From the NCBI GenBank assembly GCA_963720545.1, contig OY970399.1, positions 2,560,001 through 2,624,000 on the forward strand: 64,000 nucleotides of DNA, in the 5' to 3' direction. The DNA comes from an uncultured Acidobacteriota bacterium (lineage in GTDB: Bacteria > Acidobacteriota > Vicinamibacteria > Fen-336). Within the stretch, counting starts at the first letter, position 1, and the number at the start of each line of letters is the position of its first letter. Below are positions 20,859 through 37,471 of the stretch, piece by piece. The position numbers and the translations under genes are program-made. The notes under the pieces are model-generated. The model saw nothing but the letters and a program-made list of their open reading frames with translations, ran no database searches and had not been told where the DNA came from.

Positions 20859-20887
20859 GAGGCGGGGATTATGCCACACCTCGAGGT

Positions 20888-20961
20888 CTTCCCGAGGAGC
20901 TCAACGCTTGCGCTGCGACCGAGGGATCTCAGTTGCAACCCACTGTGTCCGGACACAGTGG
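20888..20961 (+). repeat. Dispersed REP-like repeat (TTCCCGAGGAGCTCAACGCTTGCGCT...CCACTGTGTCCGGACACAGTGG)
   Basis: 22-bp perfect palindrome at 20940-20961; near-identical composite at 62681-62743. Confidence 0.85.
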
Positions 20962-20962
20962 C

Positions 20963-21298
20963 TCAGGGGTTCGGGGCGAGCAGCAGGGCCCCCAGGAGCT
21001 GTTCGACGCTGCGGCCTTCGCGGGCGGCTCGCTGGCGCAGTTCCTCGGCACGCACGGCGGGGAGCGTCACCTCGAACGTCGGTGCCGCTGCGGCCGTGGC
21101 GAGGTGCGCGGCGACCAGGCCGCGGAAATCGGCGCCGATTCTGGCATCGCCAAGCCGCAGCCGCGCTTCCGAGAGGCGGCCGGCGCCGAGCGAGCACAAC
21201 ACCGAGATCTCGCCATCGCCCGGATCGCCGCGCAGCGTGCGGCCCAGGGACATCTCGACGTCGACGAGGTTGAGGCGATGGCGGTCGAACAGGCCCAC
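20963..21298 (-). CDS. Hypothetical protein with C-terminal ribbon-helix-helix-like segment
   Basis: GGAGG RBS 7 nt before GTG at 21298; FEVTLP..AEELRQRAAREGRSVEQLL resembles CopG/Arc RHH. Confidence 0.5.
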   Translation of the reverse strand: MGLFDRHRLNLVDVEMSLGRTLRGDPGDGEISVLCSLGAGRLSEARLRLGDARIGADFRGLVAAHLATAAAAPTFEVTLPAVRAEELRQRAAREGRSVEQLLGALLLAPNP

Positions 21299-21323
21299 TT
21301 GCGATCCTCCGTGATGATGATGG

Positions 21324-21512
21324 CTAGCGGCCGTTGATGATCTCGCCGGTCTTGTATTCGAGCTGCTGGCTCGTATCGCGAACCACACCCGGGGTGTTCT
21401 GTTCAAGCGTCTTCCAGGCTTCCTGGGAAGTCACCGGCTGCTGTGCTTGTTGCTGACCCGGAATCCCGGCAAGCGCCGGATCACCGCCGATCGGCGGCAG
21501 GTTAGAACTCAT
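21324..21512 (-). CDS. Small Gln-rich hypothetical protein (62 aa)
   Basis: GAGGAG RBS; ATGA overlap with the upstream ORF. Confidence 0.55.
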   Translation of the reverse strand: MSSNLPPIGGDPALAGIPGQQQAQQPVTSQEAWKTLEQNTPGVVRDTSQQLEYKTGEIINGR

Positions 21513-21805
21513 TGCGGCTCCTCCGTTTCTCCATCAGTGACGACGCCTTTGACACGCAACTGGGCGGTCCACGCGGATTGCGCTGCAACCGCCAGTGCTT
21601 CCGCCAGGTCGCCTTCGGTCGCGCCCGACCCGCCGGTACGCGACATCCAGTGGGCCAGCAGCACGTTCGACCCGACCGAAGCGCGGCCGGCCGAGTCGGT
21701 CATGATGCGCAGCTCGAGGAGCGCGTGTTCGATCCTCGCGGCCCACGCCGCGAAAGCCTCTTCCGCGGCTTGCGGGGCGCCCTCCGTGGCTTCGTTGCGT
21801 GCCAT
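21509..21805 (-). CDS. Hypothetical protein (98 aa)
   Basis: TAAGGA RBS close to ATG at 21805; stop overlaps the next start. Confidence 0.5.
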   Translation of the reverse strand: MARNEATEGAPQAAEEAFAAWAARIEHALLELRIMTDSAGRASVGSNVLLAHWMSRTGGSGATEGDLAEALAVAAQSAWTAQLRVKGVVTDGETEEPQ

Positions 21806-21960
21806 TTCCTTACCGAATGCACGCGGCGCGCCGCCACCGAAAAGGGCTGGTTGCTGGCCAAACCGTCCTCGATAGGCACGCCTTCCCGCAAAAATGATGC
21901 GCCTCCGGATGGCACCCTGCGCAGCCTTGCGGGCTCCTCGAGAAGGATCAGGCGGTACTG

Positions 21961-22040
21961 CTACTGCGTCCGGACACAGTGGACTGCAACGGGGGTCCCT
22001 CGGTCGCAGCGCATGCGTTGCGCTCCTCGGGAAAACGGCC
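21961..22040 (-). repeat. Inverted copy of the REP-like repeat
   Basis: Reverse complement CCGTTTTCCCGAGGAGCGCAACGCATGCGCTGCGACCGAGGGACCCCCGTTGCAGTCCACTGTGTCCGGACGCAGT aligns with 20888-20961. Confidence 0.85.
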
Positions 22041-22106
22041 GGTGGAGGCGCAAGGGTTGAGCTCGTCGGGGAAACCGCGTGGGTCTGGCGGTAGAGTCGC
22101 CGTCGC

Positions 22107-22901
22107 ATGAAGCAGTATCTCGAGCTGTTGAAGGACGTGCTGGAGAACGGCACCGAGAAGAGCGACCGCACCGGCACCGGCACGCGCTCGGTATTCGGGC
22201 GGCAGATGCGCTTCGACCTCGCGCAGGGATTTCCTCTCGTCACCACCAAGAAACTGCACCTGCGCTCGATCGTGCACGAGCTGCTGTGGTTCCTGCGCGG
22301 GGAGACCAACGTCGCATCGCTGCACGCCAGCAACGTAACGATATGGGATGAATGGGCCGACTCGCAAGGCGAGCTGGGACCGGTTTACGGCAAGCAGTGG
22401 CGCCGCTGGCTGGCGCCCGACGGCCACGAGATCGACCAGGTCGCTTGGGTGCTCGACGAGATCCGCAAGAACCCCGACTCACGCCGCCTGATCGTCTCGG
22501 CGTGGAACGTTGCCGACCTGCCGCGCATGGCCCTGCAGCCGTGCCACGTACTCTTCCAGTTCTACGTCGCCGCGGGAAAGCTCAGCTGCCAGGTGTACCA
22601 GCGCTCGGGCGACATGTTCCTCGGCGTGCCGTTCAACATCGCAAGCTACGCGCTCTTCACCACGATGATGGCGCACGCCACCGGGCTGATGCCGGGCGAC
22701 CTGGTACACACGCTGGGCGACGCGCACCTCTATTCGAACCACTTCGAGCAGGCGCGCGAGCAGCTCTCCCGCACGCCGCGCCAGCTGCCGATCCTGCGCC
22801 TAAACGACGCGCCCCGCGACTTGTTCGCGATCGGCTACAACGACATCACAGTAGAAGGCTACGACCCACTGCCTGCGATCAAGGCCCCCGTCGCGGTCTA
22901 G
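22107..22901 (+). CDS. thyA: Thymidylate synthase
   Basis: [57 protein letters not shown]. Confidence 0.98.
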
Positions 22902-23056
22902 CAATTCCCGGTTATCCAGGCGCTTCAACGGCATAGGGCGCCTCTCTTTGCACCCAGACGACGTGACATTCGAGTCAGGCCACTAGCGGGATTGAATACG
23001 GTCCAGAAAACCCATCCTCTATTCGCGGCGGTGTCGTGCAGCACCCGCGGTTCCTC

Positions 23057-24124
23057 TTAGAAACGCTTCAACAGGTTCGTGAGCGTCGGTGTCGTCAGCG
23101 CGGCGAAGTAGTACCGGCGGCCGCCGGCGAGTTCGAGGGCCATCGACGCTTTCTTCGTGAGCGACGCGGCTGGCACCTGCACCACGATCTTGAGATCGTT
23201 GCCCGCCGGCTTCTGCGAGAAGAGCGAAACCGGCTGGCCGGCGAGTGTGACGAGCGCGACGCGTTCGGCGGCGCCGCCATGCAAGGTGAAGCGCAGCCAC
23301 ACCGAGGTGTCGCCCTTCAGCGCGTCGTCGAGCACCAGCGGCTTCTGTCCCGGCAGACCTTCGCGGCGATTGATGGCGACCGACTTCGCCGAAAGCAAGC
23401 CTTCGAAATCCATGGCCGGTGACGACGCAGGCTGTGCTGTCGGCTGCGGCGCGGGCGGCGCTGGTCGCGGCGTGAAGAGCGACGTGGGTGTGACCGCCGG
23501 AACAGGTGCACTGAGGGAGGGCCGCGCCGGCGGGGCGGTTGCTTGCGCCACCACCGGCGCCGGAGTGGGCGACGCAGAGCGGGACGGTGTCGGCACGGGC
23601 GTTGGCACCGGCGTCGGCAACGCGTTGGGTTGCGCCAGAATGGCAGGCGTCGGCGCGTGTGTCGGCACCGGTCTTTGTGGCGCCGGCCGTACCATCGCGC
23701 GAGCGAGCGGCTCCGCGGCGGGCTCGGGCTCCGCAGTCGCAAGCACGAGCCGCAGTTCGGAAGGCGCTCCCTGTGAGCTCGTGCGCAGCGCCAGTACCAG
23801 GACGCGGCCTTCGACGCTCACGTGCATCTCGGCGGAGAGAGGGTGGCGTGTGGGCTGCACGCGGATGATGCCTTCGGGTCGCGAGCCGAGCACCGCGATG
23901 CCCAGAGGGTCGACGGCGGTGGGCGGTTTCACCACCACGCGACGCAGCGACCGCGCCACCACGATGCGTGTGGCCTGGTTCAACGGGCACTCGATGCGCA
24001 GCGGCGAAGCCGCCGTGGCGGCGCCCGCGGCAATGGTGACGACGCGCGGCGCGGCATCCGCGGGCCGAAGTGGACCGAAGCCGATCGCCAGCGAAAGGGC
24101 AGCGAAAATTCCTGAGAACCGCAT
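23057..24124 (-). CDS. Secreted two-domain protein with Pro-rich linker; candidate VirB9/TraN-like core component
   Basis: Signal peptide, beta-rich N-domain (IECPLNQATRIVV), PTPVPTPVPTP linker, last gene of the T4SS-like operon. Assignment is mostly positional. Confidence 0.45.
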   Translation of the reverse strand: MRFSGIFAALSLAIGFGPLRPADAAPRVVTIAAGAATAASPLRIECPLNQATRIVVARSLRRVVVKPPTAVDPLGIAVLGSRPEGIIRVQPTRHPLSAEMHVSVEGRVLVLALRTSSQGAPSELRLVLATAEPEPAAEPLARAMVRPAPQRPVPTHAPTPAILAQPNALPTPVPTPVPTPSRSASPTPAPVVAQATAPPARPSLSAPVPAVTPTSLFTPRPAPPAPQPTAQPASSPAMDFEGLLSAKSVAINRREGLPGQKPLVLDDALKGDTSVWLRFTLHGGAAERVALVTLAGQPVSLFSQKPAGNDLKIVVQVPAASLTKKASMALELAGGRRYYFAALTTPTLTNLLKRF

Positions 24125-24127
24125 GCG

Positions 24128-25915
24128 CTACCCGGCGATAGTATCCGAGACGTCGACTCCCGACTCGTCGCGCTCCGCGAACCACGACTGGTCGGGGTTG
24201 GCGTAGGCGGCCTTCAGGTACAGCACGGCCGGGTCCCACACGCTTTCCCCATCGAACATCTTGACGATCGCCTGGTTGAGCTTGAGGCGGGTGAAGGCGC
24301 GCGGCGGGAACACGTGCTCGCGCTGCAGGCTGATCGAGGTGCTCTCGCCGAACGAACCGGCATCAGCAGACACGAAGCGGCCGTCGAACACCGAGTAGCT
24401 ACCCTGCGAGTTCTCGTTGCGGCTGCGGCTCAGCTTCTCGCGCTCCACCTCGCCGCACAGGTCGGCTGCTTGGCGTGCGGTGTAGTTGTCCTCGCAGCAC
24501 AGCCAGATCTTGGTGCGCAGGTTGGCGAGCAGCTGGTGGGTGACGTGCTCGTCGTGCAGCCTGGCCGTGAAGCTCTCGTAGCTCTGGGTGGCGAGGATCG
24601 AGCAGCAGCGCGCCTCGCGGCACTTGGAGAGAAAGTTGCCGTCGGCCGGTTGGGTCACGTAGCCGTCGTACTCGTCGGCCACGAAGAACACCATGCGGCC
24701 CGGATCCGCGCGCCGTTGGTCGCTGCGTGCCAGCCGTGCCAGCACGGCGTCGAAGAAGTTGAGCTTGGTCATGGTGCCGACGATCTGCGACACCGTCTTC
24801 AGCTCGCTGTACGGCACGCGCAGCGCCACGATGCGCCCTGCGGCGATCAGCTCCTCGAAGCCGGCGAAGTTCGCGGCCTCGGGCGCGGGCGCAAACACCT
24901 CGCGGATGCTGGGCACGTCGAAGAGCGAACACGCACCGTTGAGGGTCGCGGCGATCGAACTCTTCAGCTTCGGGTCGAGGCCGGCGTTCTTCTGCTTTTG
25001 CCAGAAATCGAGCGCCTGGTACTCGGCCGGGTCGCCTTGACCGTTGTGCACCCGGATCTCGGCAAGCGCCAGCCAGTCGGCGAACAGCGTCACCGACGTC
25101 GACAGGCGGTAGAGGTCGACCATGGTCGGCTCGCGGCCCTGCGCCAGGCGCACGATGCGAATCACCTGGGTCGCAAGATCCTTGGCCTCCTGGTGCCAGA
25201 ACGGATCCTGCGTCGACTTGCCCTGGATGTTCTGGATCATGTCGGCGATGTGGCCGCCGAGCGCCGGCGCCTCGAGGTCGGGACGGCCGACGATGTTGTA
25301 GCGCACCCCCGACTCGAGGCTGATCTCGTAGTAGTCGTCGCGGCGGCCAGCCTGCGCGCATTGCTCGCGCACGAAATCTGCATAGTTGCCTTTGGCGTCG
25401 ATGATGAGACCGCCGAGCTTGCGGTCCGGGTCGTTTGCGTGCAGGCGGATGAGCTGCGCGGTGTAGGGATACTGTGCCGCCGAGGTCTTCGCCGCGCCGG
25501 TGGCGCCGGTGACGAGGATGCCGGTGCACATGCCCTTCTCGGGCAGCACGCGCCAGCGCGGACGTCCGCAACGGGCGCCGTTCTTCTCGTGCTCTTCGCC
25601 GAGGACCAGCTGCACGACCGACGGATCGAACGGGTAAGGCGGGAGCGCGCTGCGCCGTCCACCGAGTCCTTGCGAGAGGCCGTGGATCGACAGCATGCGC
25701 ATGGCGGCGGTGACGAGCAACGCACCGAGCACGGGAAAGGGAAGCGCCGACGCCCAGGCGACGTAGCCCGCGGCGCGCGGTGCCGCTTCGAGCAACTGCG
25801 GATAGCCGCCGGCGGCCGCGAGCCCGGGTGCCAGCAGCGCGCTGAACGCGGCGCCGGCAAGCGCGCCGAGGAAGGCGATGCCGTGGGCGCCGCGCGCCGG
25901 CTCAGCGCCTGCCAT
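24128..25915 (-). CDS. Type IV coupling protein (VirD4/TraD-like ATPase)
   Basis: Two N-terminal TMs, ILVTGATGAAKT (variant Walker A), LIIDAKG, DPFW, FFVADEY Walker B, CREAR..ILATQS, LLANLRTKI. Confidence 0.85.
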   Translation of the reverse strand: MAGAEPARGAHGIAFLGALAGAAFSALLAPGLAAAGGYPQLLEAAPRAAGYVAWASALPFPVLGALLVTAAMRMLSIHGLSQGLGGRRSALPPYPFDPSVVQLVLGEEHEKNGARCGRPRWRVLPEKGMCTGILVTGATGAAKTSAAQYPYTAQLIRLHANDPDRKLGGLIIDAKGNYADFVREQCAQAGRRDDYYEISLESGVRYNIVGRPDLEAPALGGHIADMIQNIQGKSTQDPFWHQEAKDLATQVIRIVRLAQGREPTMVDLYRLSTSVTLFADWLALAEIRVHNGQGDPAEYQALDFWQKQKNAGLDPKLKSSIAATLNGACSLFDVPSIREVFAPAPEAANFAGFEELIAAGRIVALRVPYSELKTVSQIVGTMTKLNFFDAVLARLARSDQRRADPGRMVFFVADEYDGYVTQPADGNFLSKCREARCCSILATQSYESFTARLHDEHVTHQLLANLRTKIWLCCEDNYTARQAADLCGEVEREKLSRSRNENSQGSYSVFDGRFVSADAGSFGESTSISLQREHVFPPRAFTRLKLNQAIVKMFDGESVWDPAVLYLKAAYANPDQSWFAERDESGVDVSDTIAG

Positions 25916-26153
25916 GGCTCACGCTGCGCTCGCGCAATGCCAGCTTGCGGCCGCTGCCGCGCCACAGTGCCAGCTCCGCGACCCGCCGCGTCAGCCAATA
26001 CAAGACGATGGCCCACGACGCCGCCAGGCCGGTGCAAGCACCTGGGTTCTGGCGCACGAAATCGACATAGAGCGGTCCGCCGTCGAGCATCACAACAGGC
26101 CAGGCGATGCCGACGAGCACGAGCATCAGCGGCACCACCACCAGGCGGTTCAT
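25902..26153 (-). CDS. Small two-TM membrane protein in the T4SS-like operon
   Basis: Overlaps both neighbours; two hydrophobic segments. Confidence 0.6.
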   Translation of the reverse strand: MNRLVVVPLMLVLVGIAWPVVMLDGGPLYVDFVRQNPGACTGLAASWAIVLYWLTRRVAELALWRGSGRKLALRERSVSHGRR

Positions 26154-27274
26154 CGCACGTCCAGGTCGGCGTTCAGGCAGACGACGAATTTCTCGCCGGC
26201 GCGCGCTTCGATCACCTTGTCGGTGCGGTCCTCGCCCCAGGTGCGCTCGAAGAAGTCAAAGTCGCGGTCGACGTCGTCGGCGATCTCGCGCGCGGCGGTA
26301 CCGACGGCACCCGAAGTCTTGCGCGCGAGCCCGATGGACGCGGCTGCGCCGACGGCTCCCACCGCGCGCGCACCCCACTTCCGGTTGGTGCTCGCCTTGC
26401 GCAGCACCTTGCCCACGACACCCATGTCGCCGTCGGTGCCGAGCGCGAGGCCCTGGAGCCGCATGGTGAGTCCGTCCTGAACGAAGGCGTGGAACGCGAC
26501 CTGCACCCGGTTCGAATCGCGGGTGGCGATGGCCGAACCGACGAGGGTGGCGCCGGCGCGGATCACGACCTGTTCGCCGACGCGCACGTCATCCACGACG
26601 CGCGCCGCAACCGGCACCGGTGCGCCGCCGGTACGCACCGGATAGATCAGGGTCGCGGCGAAGCGCGTGCCGACGTTGACGACGCGCCGCGGCCCGTCCT
26701 CGGCGCGGTCGGCGGCGATCGTCAGGCTTGGGTCGTCCTGTTCGTCGAACAGCACCGCCTCGTCGCCGGCCTTGCGGGCGGGGCGCAGCCAGGCGACGGT
26801 GCCGGCAGGGCTCACGTCGGCGTCCACGACTTCGTCGGGCTGGGCGATGCCGGCAAGCGCGGAGGCCGCGCGTACCCGCGGGTTCGCTGGCGGCAGGGCA
26901 GCGCGCACCGGCGAACGGGCCGGCGCGTCGTCGGTCTTTTCTTCAGCAGCTTCCTCAGCCGCGGGCGCTGCCGGCGCCTGCGCTGGCGCCGGTGGCATGA
27001 AATCGCGGACGCCATTCGAGAGGCCCATCACCTGCACGGTGTTGGTCGCCGCGAAAGGCACGGTGGAGCGCGCGGCGCTGGCACCGCTGTTCATCACGAT
27101 TGCGGCGAGTGCCGCGGTGCCGAGGCCGGCGATCAGCTTCCACAGACGCGGCTTCGGCGCCGGCGCGCGGCCGTTGCTCTGGTCGCGCAGCGTCTTCATC
27201 GCCTCGGCGCAGCGCTGGTTCAGCACCTGCTCGTAGCGAGACGGCAGGCTCGCGGCTCTGGGTGCGGTGCTCAT
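26150..27274 (-). CDS. VirB10/TrbI (TraM)-like protein
   Basis: Single TM, Pro/Ala-rich linker, C-domain VIRAGATLVG...NRVQVAF...LGTDGDMGVVG...IEARAGEKFVV typical of TrbI. Confidence 0.7.
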   Translation of the reverse strand: MSTAPRAASLPSRYEQVLNQRCAEAMKTLRDQSNGRAPAPKPRLWKLIAGLGTAALAAIVMNSGASAARSTVPFAATNTVQVMGLSNGVRDFMPPAPAQAPAAPAAEEAAEEKTDDAPARSPVRAALPPANPRVRAASALAGIAQPDEVVDADVSPAGTVAWLRPARKAGDEAVLFDEQDDPSLTIAADRAEDGPRRVVNVGTRFAATLIYPVRTGGAPVPVAARVVDDVRVGEQVVIRAGATLVGSAIATRDSNRVQVAFHAFVQDGLTMRLQGLALGTDGDMGVVGKVLRKASTNRKWGARAVGAVGAAASIGLARKTSGAVGTAAREIADDVDRDFDFFERTWGEDRTDKVIEARAGEKFVVCLNADLDVR

Positions 27275-27939
27275 GGCTTCCTCTCCTCCAGTTCAGTGAC
27301 CGCAGTGGCCATGGCCTCGCCGCGCGGCTGCACGGCAGACACCACCAGGCCTTCGACGACGTCATTGCGCGACGCGCGGAACAGCTCGAGGTCGAGCTCG
27401 AACACCTGGCCTGCGGCCTCGTCGGACCCGACGATCTGGCGGCGACCCTTGACGTTGGCGCGCCACGGATAAGACTTGCGGTCGACCGCGATTTCGAGCG
27501 TCGACGGGTCGATCTGCGTGCGCCGCTTGAGCCCTTCGAGGATGGCAATTGCGCCCTGTTGGTGGCGGCTGCCGCGCATGGCGCTCTTATAGGCTTCGCC
27601 GAGTTCCGGCGTCATGCGGCGCGCGCACCAGGCCGCGTCGTTGACGGCGCTGAAGCTGTCGCCGCGCATGAAGAACACCGTGAACTCCGCGGCGAAGGCG
27701 TGGATCTCGCGCTCGTCGGGCTCGGCGTAGACCTGGTCGTTGACCCGCACCAGCTGCGGGATGCCGTCGCAGCCGATGCGCACCACCTCGCGTTCCTTGT
27801 GGGACTGCCGGTAGAGGTTGACCTGCGACATCAGATTGATGACCGCCATCACCGCGAGCGCGACGCCGTAGAGGCGTGCCCGCCGTTCGTGGCTCTGCCA
27901 GAAAGCGACCGCCGGATTGCCATTCATTTGCAACCTCAT
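27271..27939 (-). CDS. VirB8/TrbF (TraK)-like protein
   Basis: One N-terminal TM followed by VVRIGCDG (cf. VVxVDxxG), ~220 aa NTF2-like size, C-terminal NDVVEGLVV. Confidence 0.65.
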   Translation of the reverse strand: MRLQMNGNPAVAFWQSHERRARLYGVALAVMAVINLMSQVNLYRQSHKEREVVRIGCDGIPQLVRVNDQVYAEPDEREIHAFAAEFTVFFMRGDSFSAVNDAAWCARRMTPELGEAYKSAMRGSRHQQGAIAILEGLKRRTQIDPSTLEIAVDRKSYPWRANVKGRRQIVGSDEAAGQVFELDLELFRASRNDVVEGLVVSAVQPRGEAMATAVTELEERKP

Positions 27940-28883
27940 TTCATCGCCGAGCGGACGGCGCCGGACACCATCTTCGAAGCGACCACCGGAATGCTCGCCA
28001 CCGCGGAGAGGAACACGGCGTTCATGCTGAAGAGCACCAGCTGGTTATGGGTCCAGTCGCTGGCGCCGCGCAGCGGCTCGGCGGAAATCGGCGGCAGCCA
28101 GGCGTCCCACGGCAGCGCGCCGATCAGCCGCTCCACGACGCCGAGGAGCAGCGGCCAGATGCAGACCGCGACGTAGCTCTGGACGAAGCCCTTGAAGACC
28201 GGCCGGGTCTGCGGCAGCACCACGGTCCACACGACGTAAGGCGTCAGCACCCAGTAGAACGCGATCAGGAACGCGTAGGTCGCGAGCAGGATGTAGCGCA
28301 GGATGAAGATCCACAGCACGTTGGTCCCGAACAGGCTGGTCCAGAACGGTTGGCTGAACTGGAACACGCGCACCATCGCCTGTTGGCGCACCTGCGGATC
28401 CTGGATGCGATCGACCGACTCCTGGAAATCCTGCATCCAGTTCGCGTCGCGCGCGAGCCTCGGGATGAGCACCGAGAACAACGACTTCTCGCCGGTGGTC
28501 TGGTCGTAGAACATCCAGCCGGTCGTCGCCAGGTAGCGCACCGGTCCGCTTTCGAAGGTATAAGTGGTGAGGAGCCACGCGCAGACCAGCCCGCCGATAC
28601 AGCACTCCTTGGCCAGCGCCAGCCACGGCTGGCCTTGGTACGCGCGGAAGCCAAGCACCAGGCACAGCAGCACCAGCGCCGCGCCCGAGAAGGTGCGGCC
28701 CACCGCGGCGCCTTGAGCCATGAGCCCGGTGAGCGCGGGGTTGTTGGCCAGCACCGTGTTGCGCACGTCGAGCTCGGCGAAGCTTTTCAGCACCTCCTGA
28801 TCGACGCAGCCGCTGCTGCCAAGCGCCACACACAACGCGAGCAGCAGTCTACGAATGTGGCGCGTCTGCAGCGTCTTCCTCAT
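27936..28883 (-). CDS. VirB6/TrbL (TraJ)-like polytopic membrane protein
   Basis: Several TMs; YWVLTPYVVWTVVLPQTRPVFKGFVQSYVAVCIWP matches the VirB6 core pattern; N-terminal lipobox-like LGSSGC. Confidence 0.7.
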   Translation of the reverse strand: MRKTLQTRHIRRLLLALCVALGSSGCVDQEVLKSFAELDVRNTVLANNPALTGLMAQGAAVGRTFSGAALVLLCLVLGFRAYQGQPWLALAKECCIGGLVCAWLLTTYTFESGPVRYLATTGWMFYDQTTGEKSLFSVLIPRLARDANWMQDFQESVDRIQDPQVRQQAMVRVFQFSQPFWTSLFGTNVLWIFILRYILLATYAFLIAFYWVLTPYVVWTVVLPQTRPVFKGFVQSYVAVCIWPLLLGVVERLIGALPWDAWLPPISAEPLRGASDWTHNQLVLFSMNAVFLSAVASIPVVASKMVSGAVRSAMK

Positions 28884-29671
28884 CTGGCAGCGCCCGCCTT
28901 GCACGGCGCCACGGCGCAGGCGAATGCCGCGTACGCCGAGAAGCCGGCCGCGTCGGCCAGGCGGGTGTCCTGTAGTTCGCGGCCGATCTCGAGCGCCTCG
29001 ATCGCCAGGCGCTGCGACTGGATACTGGAGTTGTGCTGTGCCATGCGCCCGGATTCGGCCGCAAGCCAGGCGGCGTCGCGCAGCGCATCGCCAGGGGTGG
29101 CGCGCGCGCCGGTTGCGCTTGCCTTCTCGATCGAGGGCAGGATCGTGGCCCATTGCCCCGAGGCCTGTACGTGGCTCTTGACGATACCCTCGCTCAGCAG
29201 GCCGACGAGGCTCGTCAGCTGCTCACGGTCGAGATCGCCACGGGCGGGCGCGCCGAAGATCGCTTCCATGCCCGCGCGATCGAGGACCACGTCCTGGTCG
29301 GCGATCCGCACCCGGCGGATGAGTTCGGTGCGCGCCGACCAGGCCCAGCCCTTGTCGACGTCGAGATCGGCGAACTCGGTGGCCAGGCTGCGCACTTCCC
29401 CGAGCAGGATGCCGATGGGCCCGAGTACGCCGGGACGTGGATCCGCCTCCGGAAATGGAAACGCGACCTTCGTCAGGGTGTCGGCGATGCCTTTTTGCGC
29501 AACGCTCTGTTCGTGGAGGACGCCTTCCTCGGCAATCGTCTTGAGGAACCCGGCGAAGTTGGCGAGAGCGTTCAATACGCGCTTCAGGACCGCGCCCGGC
29601 TCGTCGGCACGCACCTCCGCGGCGAGGCCGACGACCAGAATTCCGGCCGCGATGCTGCGCGGCAGCTTCAC
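28880..29671 (-). CDS. Secreted helical protein (VirB5/TrbJ-like position)
   Basis: Signal peptide (VRA-DE), helical/coiled C-terminus, between virB4-like and virB6-like genes. Confidence 0.5.
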   Translation of the reverse strand: MKLPRSIAAGILVVGLAAEVRADEPGAVLKRVLNALANFAGFLKTIAEEGVLHEQSVAQKGIADTLTKVAFPFPEADPRPGVLGPIGILLGEVRSLATEFADLDVDKGWAWSARTELIRRVRIADQDVVLDRAGMEAIFGAPARGDLDREQLTSLVGLLSEGIVKSHVQASGQWATILPSIEKASATGARATPGDALRDAAWLAAESGRMAQHNSSIQSQRLAIEALEIGRELQDTRLADAAGFSAYAAFACAVAPCKAGAAR

Positions 29672-30381
29672 CTTCGGCTCCCGGCGAGCGCTGCGTATGG
29701 CGCGAAGGCCGCGGCCGCCGCGATGCGGCGACGCGACTGGATTTCCTGCTGGCGCAGGCTCAGGAGCGCCAGTTCGCTGCTGAGAGTCTCGCTCTGCTCG
29801 ATCATCACCCGCCCGATGCCGGCCATGCCGATCGCCATGTGCCGTTCCGCGAGGCCGGCGCCCTGGTCGTCGCCGCCGCGCGCGGTCTCGTGGGCGAGGT
29901 CGTCCCAGAATTCCTTCTGCTGGTGCGACTCCCTGACACGTGCGGCGACCACGTTCATGCCGAGGACGGCGCTCACGTCGAGCAGCTCGGCAACGTCGTT
30001 ACGGAAGGTGGGCGGCGCGCCGAAGAGGTTTTGCCAGGTGCTGCGGCTGAGCGGCGTGCCGGCGCCGAAGACGTCCGCGACCAGCTGCCGCGCGTCGCCG
30101 TCCAACTCGAACTGGCTCGCCGCCGCGCCCGCCTGGCCGGCCAGGCTCTCGGCGCCGCTGAAGCGCAGCTTCATTGGCTTCTTGGTCGACTCCGGGTAAA
30201 CGGCCTCGAGCTTGCGCTGGGTCGCGACGACGCTGTCCTTGATGTCCTTGAGCACGCCGGCCAGCACCTCCTGCACGCCGTTCATCGCGTTCTCGAAGTC
30301 GTCGTCGGCCGCGTACGCCGAACCCATGGCAAACATCGCCGCGGCGGCTACGTAGGTGACCGCCAGCGCCGTGCGCTTCAT
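29668..30381 (-). CDS. Secreted helical protein (VirB5/TrbJ-like position)
   Basis: Signal peptide (AYA-ADD), coiled-coil C-terminus; ATGA overlap with the virB4-like gene. Confidence 0.5.
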   Translation of the reverse strand: MKRTALAVTYVAAAAMFAMGSAYAADDDFENAMNGVQEVLAGVLKDIKDSVVATQRKLEAVYPESTKKPMKLRFSGAESLAGQAGAAASQFELDGDARQLVADVFGAGTPLSRSTWQNLFGAPPTFRNDVAELLDVSAVLGMNVVAARVRESHQQKEFWDDLAHETARGGDDQGAGLAERHMAIGMAGIGRVMIEQSETLSSELALLSLRQQEIQSRRRIAAAAAFAPYAALAGSRR

Positions 30382-32894
30382 GCAAGCTCCCTGGTCTCTG
30401 CGGCGAGGACGCGCAGGGTGGCGAGGAGGTCGAGCTCGGGGCGGCTCGCCTGAAGCGCCGCGATGCGTTCGCGGTCCTGCGGCGAGGAGGTGAAGAGCCA
30501 GCGCGACAGCGGATCGAGCGTGATGCGAACGACGTTGGAGATGTCGGCCTGGGTGAGCAGGAACTCGTGGAAGCGGTCGTTGCACGCCAGCCGGCGCACC
30601 TGCTCGGCCTGGCGGGCGCTCAACCGCAGGTGCTTTTCGATTGCGGCGACCGCTTCCTTACCAGGGCGGCCGACGAGCTTGGTGGCACAGTTGCCGAGGA
30701 TCGCCGCGCCGTAGCCGGATCGGGCGAAGTCCTCGATCTGCTGGGACAGCGCGATGGTCGACAATCCTTCCTTGCGGCCCATGCGCACCGAAGCGGCGAT
30801 GAACGGCGCGGCCATGGTGGTAAGCGCGCCGCCGGTGCCGGCATCGAGCAGCGCCCACGACTCGTCGAGCACCAGGAAGCTGCGTCCCTGCCTGCCGGAG
30901 GCGCGATGGCGGCGCGCCGCCGCGCGCCGGATCTCATAGATGACGAGCCGCAGCGCGATGAGCGCGAGGTCAGGGTGCTCGGCGAGCCGTCCGAAGTCGT
31001 AGCACACCGCGTGTACGTCGTCGCCGACGGCCAGGCGGTCGTTCGCCGCGAACATGCGCGCGAACTTGCCGTCGACGAACGAGCGCAACCGGTCGCCGAT
31101 TGCGCGGCTCGCCGGCGAGTCGCCCAGGTGGTGGCTCAGTTCGGCGAAGGTGCGGGTGCCTCCGTCGCTGCCTTCGGCATAGAGATCGAGGAGCGCGCGT
31201 TCGATGACCGCGTTCTTCTCCTCGAAGTCGCCGTCCTTCGCGGGGTCGAGCCGCAGCAGGTCGACGAGCAGCCATTGCAGGCGGCTGACGTGCTCCTCGC
31301 GGTCGTCGACCGCAGGATCGAAAGCAAGAATGTCGCAGCCGGGCGGCTCGTTGAAGCTGAACGGGATGTAGCGGCCGTCGTGCGGCCGCGCATCCATGAA
31401 GCGCTTGTAGCTCGCGCCATTGTCGATGATGAAGACGCGCGGCGCCGGGTGGCCGTGGCAGGCGGCCATCAGCTCGTAACCGGAGACGATCATCTGCACG
31501 GCGACGCTTTTGCCAGCACCCGAGGTGCCGGTGACCAGGATGTTGGCGTTCATCTGGGCGCGTGGATCGAAGGGATCGAAGAAGATCGCCGCCCGGTCGC
31601 GCGTCAGGAACGGCACGCCGCGTGTCGAGTCGCCGCTGCGGAAGTCGAACACCGGTTGCAGGTCCACCATCACCGGCGTCAGCGCCTTGCGCCGCCGTTC
31701 GAGCACCGGCGGCGCGCCGGGAGCGTGCGAAAGGAACAGCCGCCGCAGCAGGAACGTTTCGCGGTAGCCGCGCATCCCTTGGGTCGCGGCCATGGCTGCG
31801 AGCGCCTCCTGCACCGCCTCCTCGAGCGTCTCGACGGAATCCTCCATCAGCACCAGCTGCAGCGAGGTGCCGAACAGGCGCTGGGTAGACGAGAACATCT
31901 TGCGCATCGCTTCGTTGCTTTGCGCCGACACGGCGTCGGCGTGCGGGTCGGTGCGCGCGGTCTCCACCATGGCGGTGTGGCGCAGGCCCTCGGCCAGAGC
32001 CGCCTTACGCCGCAGCAGCGACAGCTCTTCGGCGCGCTCGGGAATGTCGATGCTGTAGACCAGGCGATAGCGGCCGCGGTTGAGGCGCAGCAGCGGCACG
32101 AGCAGTCCGGGTTCGGTGCGGTCGGGTAGGTCTTTCATTGAGAGGATAGCGACGAAGCGGTCGCCGACGCGCAGTCGGGTGCGCTCCACGACGATGTCGT
32201 CTTCGAGAAGCGGCGTCGTGACGCTCAGCGCCGGGGAATGGCTGGCGGCGGTGGGACTCAGGAGTTCATGCGCGACCGCGGCCATCTCGATGCCGCGGCA
32301 GCGGTGCAGCTCGAGGCCCTCCTGCGTCGACAGCGAACGGAACACGCGCCGCTCGAAGTGCGCCGCTTCCTGCAGCACCTCGTGCTCGAGGGCCGCCTCG
32401 CTCGCCACTCGCGGCTGTCCAGCGAAACGCCCGGCCATGGTGCGCAGCGAGGCGACGAGCGGTACCAGGCGCCGCCGGCGCAGGCTGGTAGGCCGGAAGG
32501 TTGCCGCCAGGTAGTGGCGGCGATCCTGCGCCACCACCGACTCGTCGCACGCGAGCAGGCCTTCGAGCCGTGAGCGCCGCAGCTCCTCGAGAAACCCAGC
32601 CGCTCCGCCGTCGTCGACGATCGGCGGCAGCGCCTTCGTCAGCATGCGCCGCGCCTGGTGCTGGTCGAGCAGGACGAAGAACTGGTAGCGCGTGCCTTCG
32701 GGCAGGCCGGACCAGGCGTTTTCGGCAAGCAGCGCCGCGGCGTTCATGGCATCGTCGTCGAGCGACGGCTCGTGGAACGCGTGCAGGCGGTAGACGACGG
32801 TGACGTCGCCGTCGCGGTGCCAGATGAGGTCGTGGTCGACGCTCAGGATGCTCAGTTCCTCGGCCAACGACCGTTCCAGGACCGCGCTTGCCAC
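30378..32894 (-). CDS. virB4: VirB4/TraG-like ATPase
   Basis: 838 aa; FFDPFD...NANILVTGTSGAGKS Walker A, FIIDNGASY, LVLDESW Walker B, RMGRKEG, LSQQIEDF, AILGNC. Confidence 0.9.
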   Translation of the reverse strand: MASAVLERSLAEELSILSVDHDLIWHRDGDVTVVYRLHAFHEPSLDDDAMNAAALLAENAWSGLPEGTRYQFFVLLDQHQARRMLTKALPPIVDDGGAAGFLEELRRSRLEGLLACDESVVAQDRRHYLAATFRPTSLRRRRLVPLVASLRTMAGRFAGQPRVASEAALEHEVLQEAAHFERRVFRSLSTQEGLELHRCRGIEMAAVAHELLSPTAASHSPALSVTTPLLEDDIVVERTRLRVGDRFVAILSMKDLPDRTEPGLLVPLLRLNRGRYRLVYSIDIPERAEELSLLRRKAALAEGLRHTAMVETARTDPHADAVSAQSNEAMRKMFSSTQRLFGTSLQLVLMEDSVETLEEAVQEALAAMAATQGMRGYRETFLLRRLFLSHAPGAPPVLERRRKALTPVMVDLQPVFDFRSGDSTRGVPFLTRDRAAIFFDPFDPRAQMNANILVTGTSGAGKSVAVQMIVSGYELMAACHGHPAPRVFIIDNGASYKRFMDARPHDGRYIPFSFNEPPGCDILAFDPAVDDREEHVSRLQWLLVDLLRLDPAKDGDFEEKNAVIERALLDLYAEGSDGGTRTFAELSHHLGDSPASRAIGDRLRSFVDGKFARMFAANDRLAVGDDVHAVCYDFGRLAEHPDLALIALRLVIYEIRRAAARRHRASGRQGRSFLVLDESWALLDAGTGGALTTMAAPFIAASVRMGRKEGLSTIALSQQIEDFARSGYGAAILGNCATKLVGRPGKEAVAAIEKHLRLSARQAEQVRRLACNDRFHEFLLTQADISNVVRITLDPLSRWLFTSSPQDRERIAALQASRPELDLLATLRVLAAETRELA

Positions 32895-32897
32895 GGC

Positions 32898-33413
32898 TCA
32901 GACCTCCATCTCGGTGGTGGAAGCGGCCGCCGCGCTGAAGACGATGGGCGCCAAAGGCGGCCAATGCCGCGTGGCGAGCCATGCGGCGGCCGCGAGCCCC
33001 GCACTGGCAGGCGGCAGCGCCGCGAACGACTCGTCGATGGTCGATGCGATCGCGAGGACGGTGTCCGCGCCAATGTAGACGGCGATCGCCCCCGCCGACC
33101 ACCGCGCGACGAGCCTGGGAGCGACACGCTCGAAGACGGCGTTCGCGTAGAAGCGCACCGCCGAAGGCACGTAGTGTTCGTCGTCGTGCCGTTCGATCCA
33201 TGCGAGCAGCAGCGCGAAACCACCCGAGACCGCCAGCTCGAAGGCAAACGACAGCGAGCCGAACAGGACGCTCCAGGTCCGGAACTGCCACTCGACCCCA
33301 TGGCACAGGCTGAAGAACGCCATCACCAGACCGCAGCTGCGGAAGGTGAGGACGTGGAACACCCGCAGCGAATCGTCGAGGTTGCGCAGCGGCTGCGACA
33401 CTCGCCTGGCCAT
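32898..33413 (-). CDS. VirB3/PrgI-like membrane protein
   Basis: Hydrophobic, N-terminal LRNLDDSLRVFHVLT (PrgI-like), lies between the pilin and virB4. Confidence 0.55.
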   Translation of the reverse strand: MARRVSQPLRNLDDSLRVFHVLTFRSCGLVMAFFSLCHGVEWQFRTWSVLFGSLSFAFELAVSGGFALLLAWIERHDDEHYVPSAVRFYANAVFERVAPRLVARWSAGAIAVYIGADTVLAIASTIDESFAALPPASAGLAAAAWLATRHWPPLAPIVFSAAAASTTEMEV

Positions 33414-33420
33414 CGCGCGG

Positions 33421-33708
33421 CTACTTCGTGTACGTCCGGAAGAGGGTGAGAAGCGCCGTGCCGCCGCCCGCGGCGAGTGCCAGGAACAAGGCGCCGACCA
33501 CGAAGTTGCGGATCTTCTCGCCGGAGTTGTGGGAGCCGAGGGCGATCGTGCCGCCGGCGATCAACCCGCCAAGGACCATCAGCGACGGCCCCCATTTCCG
33601 GCCAGCCTTGTCGATGCCCTCGGCAAGGTTGTCGAACGGGGCCGCCATCACGGCTCCGGCGGTCAGCAACAGCGCCAACACGGTCAGGATCACAATCTCT
33701 CGTCGCAT
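33421..33708 (-). CDS. VirB2/TrbC-like pilin
   Basis: 95 aa; signal peptide (VMA-AP) plus two hydrophobic helices separated by a short basic loop; AGGAGG RBS; first gene of the operon. Confidence 0.7.
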   Translation of the reverse strand: MRREIVILTVLALLLTAGAVMAAPFDNLAEGIDKAGRKWGPSLMVLGGLIAGGTIALGSHNSGEKIRNFVVGALFLALAAGGGTALLTLFRTYTK

Positions 33709-33730: not shown

Positions 33731-33746
33731 AGCAATACAAAGACCG
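33731..33746 (-). promoter_or_regulatory. Candidate sigma-54 (-24/-12) promoter of the T4SS-like operon
   Basis: Minus strand CGGTCTTTGTATTGCT = GG-N10-GC with TTGCT; predicted +1 at ~33720 leaves a 12-nt leader containing AGGAGG. Confidence 0.55.
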
Positions 33747-33864: not shown

Positions 33865-35532
33865 ATGCCGAACACAAGTGCGGAATCAGCCGCAGACCGC
33901 GGGCCTGAGGATGGTGACCGGAACCTGCTCAACCTCGCGCTCAGCACCGCTCAGCGCGAACTCTCGAGGACCGGCGATCCCGTGGTCGCCTTGTCCGAGT
34001 CGTTCAGCTACGCCCGCCGCGGCCTGGCCGCGCAAATCGCCGTGCTGCTGTACGTCCGGCAAAACGATCCGCTCGAACTCGACATCCTTTATTCCAGCGG
34101 CCTGACCTGGGAGCAGCAGCAGGCGTGCCGGGAGCGCCGCTCGATCGAGGGCGTCAGCCCGACCGTGATCCAGGAGGCGATCGACCGGCGCGCCGCCCTC
34201 TTCATCGCCAACTCGCAGGCGGCGGCCTCGCCCTCGCTCACTGCCTCCCTGTCGGGCGACCCGCGCAGCGTGCTGTGCGCGCCGATCCTCGACCCCTACA
34301 CAGGCGCGGTGATCGCCGTCCTCTACCTGCAGAACAAGGGTCTCGCCCAGGCCTTCGCGGACGACGACCGGGCCTGGCTCGCGAGCTATTCGATCGCGCT
34401 CGGCTGGGGCTTCGGGCTGCACCTCGCCACGCGGCGCAGGATTTCCGAACTCGAGGAGGAGAAAGGCCGCCTGCAGCAAGACCGAAGCGGCGCCCCGGAC
34501 ATCATCGGCGAGAGTTCCTCGACCCGCGGCCTGCTGTCACTGCTCGACGAAACCTTCATTCCGGCGACCGGCCGCGCCAACCCGCGGCCGATCCTCATCC
34601 TCGGCGACTCGGGAACCGGCAAGGAGCTCGTTGCCCGCTATCTTCATTACTATTCGCCGACGCGCGGCAAGGGGCCGTTCGTCGCCTACAACTGCGCCGG
34701 GCTGCGCGGTGACATGATGATGGCCCAGTCGGTGCTGTTCGGCCACCTGCGCGGCTCGTTCACGAGCGCGGTGCGCGACTCGCCGGGGCTGTTTCGCGGC
34801 GCCCACAAGGGCATCCTGTTCCTCGACGAAGTGGGGGAGCTGTCGCTCGACGCGCAGGCATTGCTGCTGCGCGTGCTCGAGGCTCGCACCGTGCACCCGA
34901 TCGGGCAGATCCAGCCGGAGCCGGTGGACGTGCAGCTGGTGATGGCCACGCATCGCGACCTGCCGGCTGAGGTGGCCGCCGGCCGGTTCCGCAACGACCT
35001 GTGGAGCCGCATCAGCGGACTCAAGATCCGCCTCGCGCCGCTCGGCACCAGCGAGCGCCGTGCCGACATCAGGCCGCTGCTCGCGCACTTCATCTCGCGC
35101 CACGAGAAGGACCTGAAGAAGAAGACCGCCGGCCTCACCACGCAGGCGTTTCGCGCCCTGATGTCGTACTCGTGGCCGAACAACGCGCGCGAGGTGGACA
35201 ACGTTTGCATGGCGCTCATCACTTATGCCAAGGCTGGCGCGCGCATCGACGTCGTCGACATCGAACGCACCTGCCCCGAAGTGATCCATGGCCCGCGCCA
35301 TCCAGACGCCGCCGCGTTCGCTGCCGATGACGCAACCTATGACGAAGGCTTCCTCATGTGGGAGACCGAGTTCCTGCGGCGGCGCATCGAACACCACGGC
35401 GGCAACATGCGCGACGCCGCGCGGGCGCTGGCGGTCTCCGACATGACCTTCCTGCGCTACCGCCGGCGCTGCGGCCTGGTGCGCAAGGAAGACGAGAGCC
35501 TAGAGGCGCGCGGGACGGAACATGCCCCATGA
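33865..35532 (+). CDS. GAF-domain sigma-54-dependent transcriptional activator (bEBP, Fis-type HTH)
   Basis: SVLCAPI GAF, GDSGTGKE Walker A, PFVAYNCA, LFGHLRGSFTSA (GAFTGA variant), LFLDEVG, FRNDL, YSWPNNARE, GGNMRDAARALAV HTH. Confidence 0.9.
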   Translation: MPNTSAESAADRGPEDGDRNLLNLALSTAQRELSRTGDPVVALSESFSYARRGLAAQIAVLLYVRQNDPLELDILYSSGLTWEQQQACRERRSIEGVSPTVIQEAIDRRAALFIANSQAAASPSLTASLSGDPRSVLCAPILDPYTGAVIAVLYLQNKGLAQAFADDDRAWLASYSIALGWGFGLHLATRRRISELEEEKGRLQQDRSGAPDIIGESSSTRGLLSLLDETFIPATGRANPRPILILGDSGTGKELVARYLHYYSPTRGKGPFVAYNCAGLRGDMMMAQSVLFGHLRGSFTSAVRDSPGLFRGAHKGILFLDEVGELSLDAQALLLRVLEARTVHPIGQIQPEPVDVQLVMATHRDLPAEVAAGRFRNDLWSRISGLKIRLAPLGTSERRADIRPLLAHFISRHEKDLKKKTAGLTTQAFRALMSYSWPNNAREVDNVCMALITYAKAGARIDVVDIERTCPEVIHGPRHPDAAAFAADDATYDEGFLMWETEFLRRRIEHHGGNMRDAARALAVSDMTFLRYRRRCGLVRKEDESLEARGTEHAP

Positions 35533-36880
35533 CGCCGACCACACCGAGGCGTACCGCTCGCTCTGCTACGGCGACTCGGTCTTCAAGGAACGTTACGAAG
35601 GCTGGGAGGAGATCGGCCTCGGCGGCCATGCGGTCGTGGCGCGGGTGCGCAGCCGCGTCCTCGACAAGGAAATAGCGCTCAAGATCTTCACCCCGCTGGC
35701 CGCCGCCGACCGCCCGCGCTTCCAGCGCGAAGCCAACAACGCCGCGGAAGTGAGCTCGCCGTTTATCGTGCGGCCGATGGGCGTGTTCGTCCGCGGCAGC
35801 CTCGGCTGGATCGAGATGGAGCTCGTCGACGGCCCCGACCTCGGCCGCGAGCTGGAGCGACGCGCTGCCGCCGCCGACCCGTTTTCACTCCTCGAAGCGC
35901 TCGACATCGCGATCGACGTGACCGCCGGCCTGGTGCACGCGCACCAGGCATCCTTGATTCACCGCGACATCAAACCGGCGAACATCTACCTGCCCGGCAG
36001 CCGGCGGCCCGCGGCGAAGCTCGGCGACTTCGGCATCGCCCGCCTTGCCGAGTCGATGAAGCTCACCAAGACCGACGTGTTTCGCGGAACTCCCGAATGG
36101 ACCTCGCCCGAAGGCGCCGACGGCAAGGCGCTGGAGGCGCCGCACGACGTCTACTGCCTGGGCCTCACGCTCTTCTCGCTCTTCACCAACAACGAGAAAG
36201 CCATTCCTTTGCCGCCGAACCCGACGCCGCAGGCGGTACTGCGTGCCCACCTGAAGCAGCAGCCGCGCCCCTTGCGTGCCGTGAACCCGGCCTTGCCGCG
36301 GCCCCTCGAGGAGCTACTGTCGCGCTGCCTCTTGAAACGCCCAGCGGAATCGCGCCCGGCAGCGACGAAGCTGCTCCAGGATCTTCAGGCGATTCGCGAC
36401 GAGGTGCAGCACGCGCCGCCGCACGCAAGCATCGTTCTGCGCTCAAATTCACGACGGGCGGGCTTCGCCGTGCCCACCGCCGCGGTTCTGCTTCTCGCCG
36501 CCGCGGGATACGTCGGGCTGCGCCGCCAACCAGCTGCGCCGCACCGGCCGATGCCCTCGCTTGCCGCGAGCCTCGGCGCCGGCACAGAAACTCCCGCAAG
36601 CGCGCCGCCGGCCCAGCCGAGCGGCGGCCTCACGGCATCCCTTGAAGGTGGCATGCTGCGTCTCTCTACCGGCGCCGACGCGCTGGGCGGCGTCGACCTC
36701 ACGCTCGCAAGCGGTGGCCGGACCTATGTCCACCACCTCAGCGAGCCGATCGATGCCCATGCCACGGCGTTTGTTCCGCTCGACGAGTTCGTGCCGGTGC
36801 CACCCGAAGGCGCCGCGTTTCACGAGGTCCACGTGACTGGCTCGGCTGGATTCGCCCCCCTCGTCGTGCTGATCCGCTAG
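35522..36880 (+). CDS. Membrane-anchored Hanks-type Ser/Thr protein kinase
   Basis: IGLGGHAVV, IALK, HRDIKPAN, KLGDFG, GTPEWTSPE, DVYCLG; one TM and a C-terminal extracytoplasmic domain; overlaps the activator stop by 11 nt. Confidence 0.92.
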   Translation: MPHDADHTEAYRSLCYGDSVFKERYEGWEEIGLGGHAVVARVRSRVLDKEIALKIFTPLAAADRPRFQREANNAAEVSSPFIVRPMGVFVRGSLGWIEMELVDGPDLGRELERRAAAADPFSLLEALDIAIDVTAGLVHAHQASLIHRDIKPANIYLPGSRRPAAKLGDFGIARLAESMKLTKTDVFRGTPEWTSPEGADGKALEAPHDVYCLGLTLFSLFTNNEKAIPLPPNPTPQAVLRAHLKQQPRPLRAVNPALPRPLEELLSRCLLKRPAESRPAATKLLQDLQAIRDEVQHAPPHASIVLRSNSRRAGFAVPTAAVLLLAAAGYVGLRRQPAAPHRPMPSLAASLGAGTETPASAPPAQPSGGLTASLEGGMLRLSTGADALGGVDLTLASGGRTYVHHLSEPIDAHATAFVPLDEFVPVPPEGAAFHEVHVTGSAGFAPLVVLIR

Positions 36881-37269: not shown

Positions 37270-37307
37270 CGTTTCCACGGAATGGAGTCTACGGCGCTCC
37301 CCGAGCC

Positions 37308-37372
37308 CCGTCTTCCCGAGGAGTTCATCGCTTGCGCTGAACCTGGGCGAGCCACTGTGTCCGGACACAGTG
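37308..37372 (+). repeat. REP-like repeat copy
   Basis: CCGTCTTCCCGAGGAGTTCATCGCTTGCGCTG...CACTGTGTCCGGACACAGTG. Confidence 0.85.
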
Positions 37373-37471
37373 AGCTGGCGGGTCCTTCGCGCCAGCGCAA
37401 GCGCAAGTAGCGCTCAGGACTGCGGGGGACAGGGTAATGTCCGGAGTCACGATGGCTGAAGAGCTGAGAGC

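Follow-up and report, generated by a model that had tools for sequence, protein, structure and literature searches.

An operon of 11 genes at positions 23057–33708 of a 64,000-nucleotide stretch of acidobacterial DNA (the window, G000:C1:2560001-2624000) encodes a type IV secretion system (T4SS). The source genome, G000, belongs to an uncultured member of the Vicinamibacteria and comprises 4.09 Mb in one contig (94.8% complete). This operon is probably a mating apparatus that was stranded in the chromosome and that stems from an undescribed conjugative element family, which is found in Vicinamibacteria and also in a Gemmatimonadota genome. This reading is carried by a relaxase that shares contigs with homologous operons in relatives, by two shortened relics of the relaxase cluster next to the operon in G000, and by a thyA gene that occupies the place of the missing relaxase segment.

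The 11 open frames all lie on the minus strand and are separated by gaps of 3–7 nt or overlap by 4–14 nt, in agreement with an earlier note on this DNA that had described co-oriented, intact genes that abut or overlap. The operon has about the GC content of the rest of the window, and codon use across the region is mostly host-like. The VirB4 ATPase, the VirB9/VirB10 outer core, and the coupling protein, which together identify a T4SS, are all present. VirB4 (838 aa, 30378–32894) has intact Walker A and Walker B motifs and is a single copy in the genome. It matches TIGR02746 (148.6 bits, E 1.8e-43, cut-off 567) and TIGR00929 (124.2 bits, E 5.1e-36, cut-off 643) and passes the Pfam TraG P-loop cut-off, and the VirB4 profile matches solved VirB4/TrwK structures. 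The VirD4/TraD-like type IV coupling protein (T4CP, 24128–25915) matches Pfam TrwB_AAD_bind and TraG-D_C above cut-off, which confirms the two ATPases proposed earlier. VirB10/TrbI (26150–27274) was assigned by ESM Atlas (0.95, TrbI in 28 of 30 matches) and by its homologues, of which both that were scanned exceed the Pfam TrbI cut-off. The last gene (23057–24124) had been regarded as a secreted protein with a proline linker and without further identity. Its predicted fold, two β-domains connected by a proline-rich linker, instead identifies it as the VirB9/TraK-like outer-membrane core protein. The AF2 model (pLDDT 74.9) retrieved only T4SS core-complex chains at Foldseek ranks 1–10 (best E 1.3e-6), and a fold comparison (VIA) with an X. 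citri core-complex chain gave a Z score of 11.0 and an rmsd of 2.3 over 95 residues. The ESM Atlas leads for this protein were weak (all below 0.9).

The remaining labels are drawn from weak matches in homologues and from gene position and are accordingly putative. The VirB2-like pilin (95 aa, 33421–33708) is assigned partly by position. It has no Pfam match itself, its homologues match TrbC/VirB2 weakly (E 0.18–0.58), and the pilin family profile matches open reading frames (ORFs) at the pilin position of the VirB loci L088 and L089 (E 1e-4 and 1.5e-3). The VirB3-like membrane protein (32898–33413) is named mostly for its position directly before VirB4 in homologous loci, and one homologue matches PrgI (E 0.021). 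The VirB6-like polytopic membrane protein (27936–28883) has homologues with weak matches to TrbL/VirB6 (E 0.006 and 0.04) and TraG_N. Its N terminus features a lipobox-like Gly-Cys, with L21, G25, and C26 invariant in 14 sequences, which possibly stands in for a separate lipoprotein. The family profile of the VirB8-like bitopic protein (27271–27939, with a possible start at 27927) matches ORFs at the VirB8 position of VirB loci (E 6e-5 to 0.01), one of which is a Pfam VirB8; a homologue of this protein matches DotI/IcmL (E 0.03). Sequence searches of structure databases with the VirB10 and VirB8 profiles, and with the profile of the relaxase described below, returned nothing meaningful.

Two secreted helical proteins are encoded between VirB4 and VirB6. 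They are paralogues of each other (hhalign 99.8%), and the first (29668–30381) is VirB5/TrbJ-like by position only, whereas no family was assigned to the second (28880–29671). The representative library holds 100 relatives of the first protein, and the 54 that were scanned against Pfam match no T4SS family, so that VirB5/TrbJ remains a positional guess for the pair. A small membrane protein without a family (25902–26153) is conserved between VirB10 and the coupling protein (12 homologous ORFs in the fetched loci, some of them redundant). As had been noted before, no VirB11-like ATPase was found near the operon.

A relaxase, which was not found in G000, is encoded in its relatives. In G003, a cluster located 10 kb past the T4CP gene begins with radC and small genes. 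These are followed by a gene for a protein of 292 aa that is flanked on either side by a putative ribbon-helix-helix (RHH) gene, then by a degenerate paralogue of the 292-aa gene, and finally by one more small gene. For the 292-aa protein, 406 homologues were found, and its HUH motifs, with Tyr-21 and His-119, -129, -131, and -133, are invariant in the 64 that were aligned. Fold-search ranks 1–28 obtained with its structural model are all conjugative relaxases (best E 9.4e-5), and we therefore assign the protein by predicted fold as an HUH relaxase. It passes no Pfam or NCBIfam cut-off (MobQ, 15 bits versus 200; MobP3, 11 bits versus 150), and the relaxase family has no match on plasmids. The longer degenerate paralogue lies two genes downstream of the relaxase (L110:20-1864 and L075:18494-19822; E 1.6e-6 to the relaxase profile).

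Relaxase and secretion genes are co-located in several genomes. The relaxase gene shares a contig with T4SS genes in G003 (contig C13, 10 kb from T4CP) and in G663 (contig C11, 15 kb from VirB4), and it lies 8 kb from a T4CP fragment on one contig of G156. Relaxase, coupling protein, and mating-pair formation (MPF) genes occur together on G663:C11 and G003:C13, the latter without VirB9 and with the operon split by an insertion. The relaxase match of G663 carried three TGA stops, yet an uninterrupted frame of 209 aa spans the catalytic motifs. Matches to the relaxase were obtained in 10 of the 58 genomes of the host's family. Two further pairs were considered, P0017 (VirB4) with P0157 (relaxase), both on a 65,162-bp contig, and P0206 (VirB9) with P0114 (relaxase), on a 6,053-bp contig; equal length is no more than a hint of a shared contig, and these pairs were not counted. 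Next to the relaxase cluster of G003:C13, defence-like cargo is encoded (L075:789-17945), comprising ThiF-JAB, a metallo-β-lactamase fold, an SNF2 helicase, and DUF499. A homologue of a small, conserved element gene that neighbors radC, 63% identical, stands alone amid housekeeping genes of G000 (G000:C1:1121177-1121464).

In G000 itself, neither a relaxase nor an element integrase was found. The whole-genome relaxase search that the earlier note had called for found none with PF03432, PF08751, PF03389, PF01076, and PF07514 (controls positive) or with the cognate family profile, MOB_T (PF02486) not being searched; a search with PF13814 was uninformative because its control was silent. Only two tyrosine recombinases were detected, both far away and by context resembling XerC/XerD, and no large serine recombinases were found. 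The candidate origin-of-transfer (oriT) region of five relatives has no convincing match in G000, and the window contains no tRNA target.

In place of the relaxase cluster, two relics are present to the left of the operon, both on the minus strand. The first (21509–21805, E 1.4e-6) corresponds, in shortened form, to the putative RHH-type gene located after the relaxase gene in G003, G060, and G663. It is the only match in the genome, spans residues 53–120 of 128, and has a GC content at third codon positions at the 1st percentile. The second (20963–21298, E 3e-11, with weak RHH matches) is likewise shortened and homologous to the gene that ends the relaxase cluster of G003, again the only match in the genome, and spans residues 2–108 of 176. 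Order and orientation of both relics relative to T4CP are those seen in G003. The interval between relics and VirB9, where the segment from radC to the relaxase would be expected, is occupied by thyA (22107–22901, plus strand) and a copy of a repeat that resembles repetitive extragenic palindromic (REP) elements (21960–22036, minus strand). Single read contigs span the passage from relic to thyA (21359–22148, run X6) and from thyA to VirB9 (22623–23503, run X1, which may be the source sample of G000), and reads in runs from four studies cover all 30 bins of the region, with pieces that are near 99% identical. The left flank is thus not the ordinary chromosome that it had been taken for, given that the 58 relatives all lack thyA and that the two shortened homologues lie at 20963–21805. 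Further copies of the REP-like repeat are found at 20886–20962 and 37305–37372. The repeat has an 18-nt palindromic core and 32 genome-wide copies, and a tandem array of ∼366-nt units is located at 61783–63133 of the window. The repeats that flank the locus were considered as attachment (att) sites and ruled out, since at least 32 copies exist genome-wide.

The thyA gene is the only thymidylate synthase gene found in G000. In contrast, thyX is present in 54 of the 58 relatives, including all 25 others that are at least 90% complete, and was not found in G000, where the syntenic site is without it. The thyX of the family is a two-domain version, and the G000 lineage uses thyA plus folA instead. 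The folA gene is located 645 kb away (G000:C1:1935214-1935741) and is absent from all 18 family relatives compared. Exchange of ThyA and ThyX through lateral transfer is known, as stated in the part of PMC2826268 that we consulted. An essential thyA would pin its neighborhood; with thyX replaced, the region could then not be lost as a block.

Homologous loci are distributed patchily. Close VirB4 homologues occur in 5 of the 58 family genomes. Among the 242 other genomes sampled from the class there are none, and nine of these hold distant VirB4s only. T4CP matches were found in eight family genomes, one of them from a different VirB system. The complete set of all 11 genes is also present on a Gemmatimonadaceae contig (G663:C11), that is, in a second phylum. 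The flanks differ from locus to locus. In G181, the operon is accompanied by an integrase, a RelE-type pair, and metal-resistance cargo; integrases lie near the homologous operons in L005 and L037, and integrase fragments in L082 and L077. RepA and ParA are encoded at L009 and in G006, whose operon is truncated behind VirB4, and in G003 a 39-kb insertion separates VirB6 from VirB8. Of 29 related loci, one has a tRNA gene, at a distance of 24 kb from its relaxase gene. No close homologue was detected on 72,556 plasmids or among viral contigs. Synteny with thyA, suggested as a check in the earlier note, was seen at none of the homologous loci examined. The domesticated machine proposed there, for which a conserved position and the lack of a relaxase were to serve as support, is by the note's own terms of refutation not supported by these loci, which carry a cognate relaxase, integrases, or RepA and whose VirB4 is confined to so few family members.

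The operon is associated with regulators of its own, as had been proposed. Divergent from it, a GAF-AAA+ σ54 activator is encoded on the plus strand (33865–35532; Pfam Sigma54_activat and GAF_2), followed by an overlapping gene for a Ser/Thr protein kinase (35522–36880, plus strand; Pfam Pkinase) that also follows the activator in homologous loci. A predicted σ54 (−24/−12) promoter of the form GG-N8-TTGC precedes the pilin gene (33732–33745, minus strand). The pilin is seen in 23 of 51 metagenome loci examined (L019–L069), in 19 cases together with the activator; three of the four others extend less than 900 nt upstream of the pilin. In 15 of 17 loci, the GG-N8-TTGC pattern precedes the first gene by 37–54 nt, and it lies within 70 nt of 68 of the 3369 genes of G000, although it was picked after inspection of 10 of the 17 loci, which are kin. 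A strict σ54 consensus with two mismatches missed the window site, and the looser pattern was defined afterwards. A gene with an RpoN box is present in G000. The activator presumably drives the operon. To our knowledge, control of a transfer operon by σ54 and a kinase is unusual.

Between the kinase gene and ligD, there are a small membrane gene and a glycosyltransferase-like gene (36877–39205) with atypical codon use. Reduced modules were observed in five family genomes (L153:6750-12977, L154:6959-12996, L155:10307-17570, L156:1793-7018, and L157:1824-4728). Each contains VirB9 (E 3.4e-75 or better), which kinase and activator adjoin on four of the five contigs, the fifth ending at VirB9. A weakly FadL-like barrel follows VirB9 in all five, with an Ig/PKD-domain lipoprotein in between in three. 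The other T4SS genes are found on none of these contigs, the σ54 site is kept in one, and two of the modules are close to the same pyruvate-kinase-like gene.

In the complete element, the σ54 activator, probably tuned by the adjacent kinase, would switch on the operon. VirB2, VirB3, VirB4, VirB6, and VirB8 would then form the inner platform and pilus, and VirB9 and VirB10 the outer core, while a linked VirB11 is missing. The small HUH relaxase, supplied from its separate cluster 10–15 kb away, would be passed to the coupling protein bound to oriT DNA. In the G000 lineage, the segment from radC to the relaxase appears to have been replaced by thyA and the REP-like repeat, a further gene of the cluster to have been deleted, and two cluster genes to have persisted in shortened form, with no integrase left, and the acquired thyA, with folA elsewhere, would have replaced thyX. 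The machine probably still assembles but would have no cognate DNA substrate, and the coupling protein would be under relaxed constraint.

We compared the operon with near-identical alleles that other assemblies contain. The differences amount to 76 of 2739 residues in six T4SS proteins and to 17 of 2629 in six host proteins; the host sum excludes a truncated fabH fragment (10 of 166; 27 of 2795 when included), and thyA, activator, and kinase are outside both sums. At the positions where T4CP differs, the window copy always departs from the family consensus and the other alleles agree with it (15:0 and 25:0); the departures include a Ser-to-Ala exchange in the Walker A loop, and most of the consensus set comes from one genus. 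In VirB4, a residue that is otherwise invariant is broken in one allele. The T4CP alleles P0348 and P0349 hold different subsets of the consensus residues in a mosaic-like manner. The T4CP pattern fits relaxed constraint after substrate loss, and it likewise fits retooling or recombination with consensus-like alleles.

Several observations count against a stranded mating apparatus. The promoter and all 13 genes, those of the operon and the two regulators, have remained intact, while the mobilization genes decayed, and single-nucleotide polymorphisms (SNPs) in the operon are synonymous to non-synonymous in a ratio of 7 to 5, against an expected share of 0.28 (p 0.026); the corresponding counts are 8 to 4 for the flanks and 0 to 5 for the regulators, all taken from 40 of 112 rows. 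One-sided drift was seen in no gene other than T4CP, and the T4CP pattern would fit recombination too. Envelope proteins often evolve faster than housekeeping ones, and our comparison of variability was made without synonymous divergence (dS). The relaxase is present without this T4SS in G209, G165, and G030, and conversely T4CP is present without a relaxase match in G181, G123, G096, and G114. VirB9 is absent from G003 and from loci L006, L021, L047, and L076, so that several of the elements used as reference are themselves degraded. No att sites were found in any of the homologous loci, and because thyA is seen on no related element, it may have arrived separately.

The intact state of the operon can also be explained by exaptation in progress, in which the host has kept a σ54-run machine for a contact pilus or for protein delivery and T4CP is being retooled for protein substrates. 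We hold this to be doubtful, albeit with a real chance of being correct. The kept promoter, a complete gene set including the VirB9 that several relatives lack, the excess of synonymous SNPs, the read coverage in runs of four studies, and the mostly host-like codon use would all be expected, as would the concentration of changes in T4CP, the part that recognizes the substrate. Moreover, the five genomes that hold only regulators and VirB9 indicate that hosts do keep parts of the system, and many relaxase-less T4SSs have been argued to be exapted (PMC3548315, in the part available to us). However, no effector or immunity candidates are evident next to the operon (no systematic search was made), the T4SS proteins are ∼4-fold more variable than host proteins, an invariant VirB4 residue is broken in one allele, and the position is conserved in no other genus. 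Distinctly less likely, in our view, is a working conjugation network in which the module acts as helper for relaxase-bearing elements or in which other strains hold the relaxase between VirB9 and thyA. The three genomes with a relaxase but without this T4SS nearby are consistent with it, and so are the mosaic-like, partly consensus-like T4CP alleles, the incompleteness of G000, and the observation that, outside the G000 assembly, two sets of records assign near-identical left-flank proteins (thyA) and T4SS proteins (VirB9) to separate contigs (625,038 and 1,240,426 bp). Against it stand the negative searches for relaxase and candidate oriT in G000 and the read contigs that bridge relic, thyA, and VirB9.

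An old, vertically inherited chromosomal secretion system, with the relaxase cluster as a chance neighbor in relatives, would be the earlier proposal in its strong form and is very improbable. It would accommodate the genomes with T4CP but no relaxase match and the lack of close homologues on plasmids and viral contigs, but the distribution is patchy and crosses phyla, the flanks are different at every locus, and the relaxase cluster accompanies the operon in two phyla and has left relics here. We thus favor a mating apparatus stranded by loss of its relaxase segment. A wider proposal, which we put forward tentatively and regard as rather unlikely, is that a further mating-pair class, without VirB11, VirB7, and VirB1, controlled by σ54 and a kinase, and served by a relaxase that profiles miss, spreads in soil Acidobacteriota and Gemmatimonadota and is domesticated stepwise. 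The whole machine, pinned by thyA, would here be selected for a new role in contact or in protein delivery, for which the coupling protein is retooled, and the five reduced genomes would retain regulators and VirB9 to drive a new pair of Ig-domain lipoprotein and barrel.

Acidobacteriota are abundant in soil, and their gene-transfer machinery is little described. The family is a candidate conjugation route for metal-resistance and defence cargo across two phyla. Because its relaxase escapes Pfam and NCBIfam cut-offs, some T4SSs called relaxase-less may reflect failures of detection. The loci form a dated-looking series (complete, split, truncated, relaxase-less, and VirB9-only) in which decay versus re-use of relaxase-less T4SSs can be tested.

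We compared the system with those described before; no description of it turned up in the literature searched, with subscription papers and supplements outside the scope. The new relaxase shares the fold, the catalytic Tyr, and the three-His motif with the HUH relaxases of MOB_Q (R1162 MobA), MOB_F (TrwC), and MOB_V (MobM), but is only 11–18% identical to them. Similar to the MOBless chromosomal T4SSs of PMC3548315, as far as that source was available to us, the operon is chromosomal with no relaxase or integrase nearby; in contrast to them, its relatives have a cognate relaxase that falls below Pfam and NCBIfam cut-offs, and relics mark its loss here. The same source, in the part seen, places the acidobacterial T4SSs examined there in MPF_T and states that unknown relaxases can inflate MOBless counts. 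The Myxococcus plasmids pYRE and MxC21-1 unnamed1 resemble the operon in their small pilin- and VirB3-like genes, VirB4, three to four unannotated genes, and kinase, with DUF2381 in one of them, and the VirB4 of pYRE is the best outside reference against the family profile (E 1.4e-50). The other family profiles match these plasmids unconvincingly, however, no sister relation is supported, and no σ54 activator is annotated. Myxococcus plasmids typed as non-mobilizable carry compact T4SS-like sets that end in a protein kinase (L137:19240-32113 and L141:6604-16537).

The earlier suggestion of a divergent, possibly undescribed T4SS subtype is supported by the placement of VirB4. A quick tree was built from 38 ATPase domains, in which the 19 rows of the family form a clade of their own (support 100, stem 1.53), separate from the reference groups T (support 95), B (98), and F (93); the tree does not resolve the base of the clade, and a sister relation to F is possible. 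The references comprised three T and two B sequences; G, I, FA, and FATA were each represented by a single long-branch sequence and MPF_C by none, and R388 and pCF10 were cut at a fallback position. The NCBIfam scores of VirB4 were far below cut-off.

With MPF_F (F TraC, TraB, TraK, and TraD), the operon shares its best VirB4 model, which is the F-type TraC, its best plasmid matches, which are mostly TraC (21–27%), and the best Foldseek match of the VirB9 fold, the F outer-membrane core. F systems also operate without VirB11. However, VirB4 scores 148.6 against a cut-off of 567, and TraN, TraU, TraW, TraH, TraF, and TraV are matched by none of the 11 genes. Similar to MPF_B (the Bacteroidota Tra system, p5482), the operon is compact and without VirB11, its VirB4 exceeds the Pfam TraG P-loop cut-off, and weak leads to TraM and DUF4138 were obtained, whereas VirB4 lies outside the B clade, the Bacteroidetes Tra models of NCBIfam match no window protein, the relaxase showed no relation to that of p5482 in the tests made, and MobB has no match in G000. 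The likeness to MPF_T (Ti and R388 VirB/D4 and IncP Trb) comprises the gene order VirB2-3-4-5-6-8, two genes at the TrbJ position, a TrbI-type VirB10, and the VirB9 fold; in contrast, no VirB11, VirB7, or VirB1 is linked, VirB9 follows the coupling protein, and VirB4 is outside the T clade. The other VirB systems of the class (L081, L087, and L090) are separate from this one and carry VirB11. Judged by its gene content, the machine would thus be expected to work like a compact VirB/D4 conjugation machine, yet it departs from defining features of MPF_T, MPF_F, and MPF_B.

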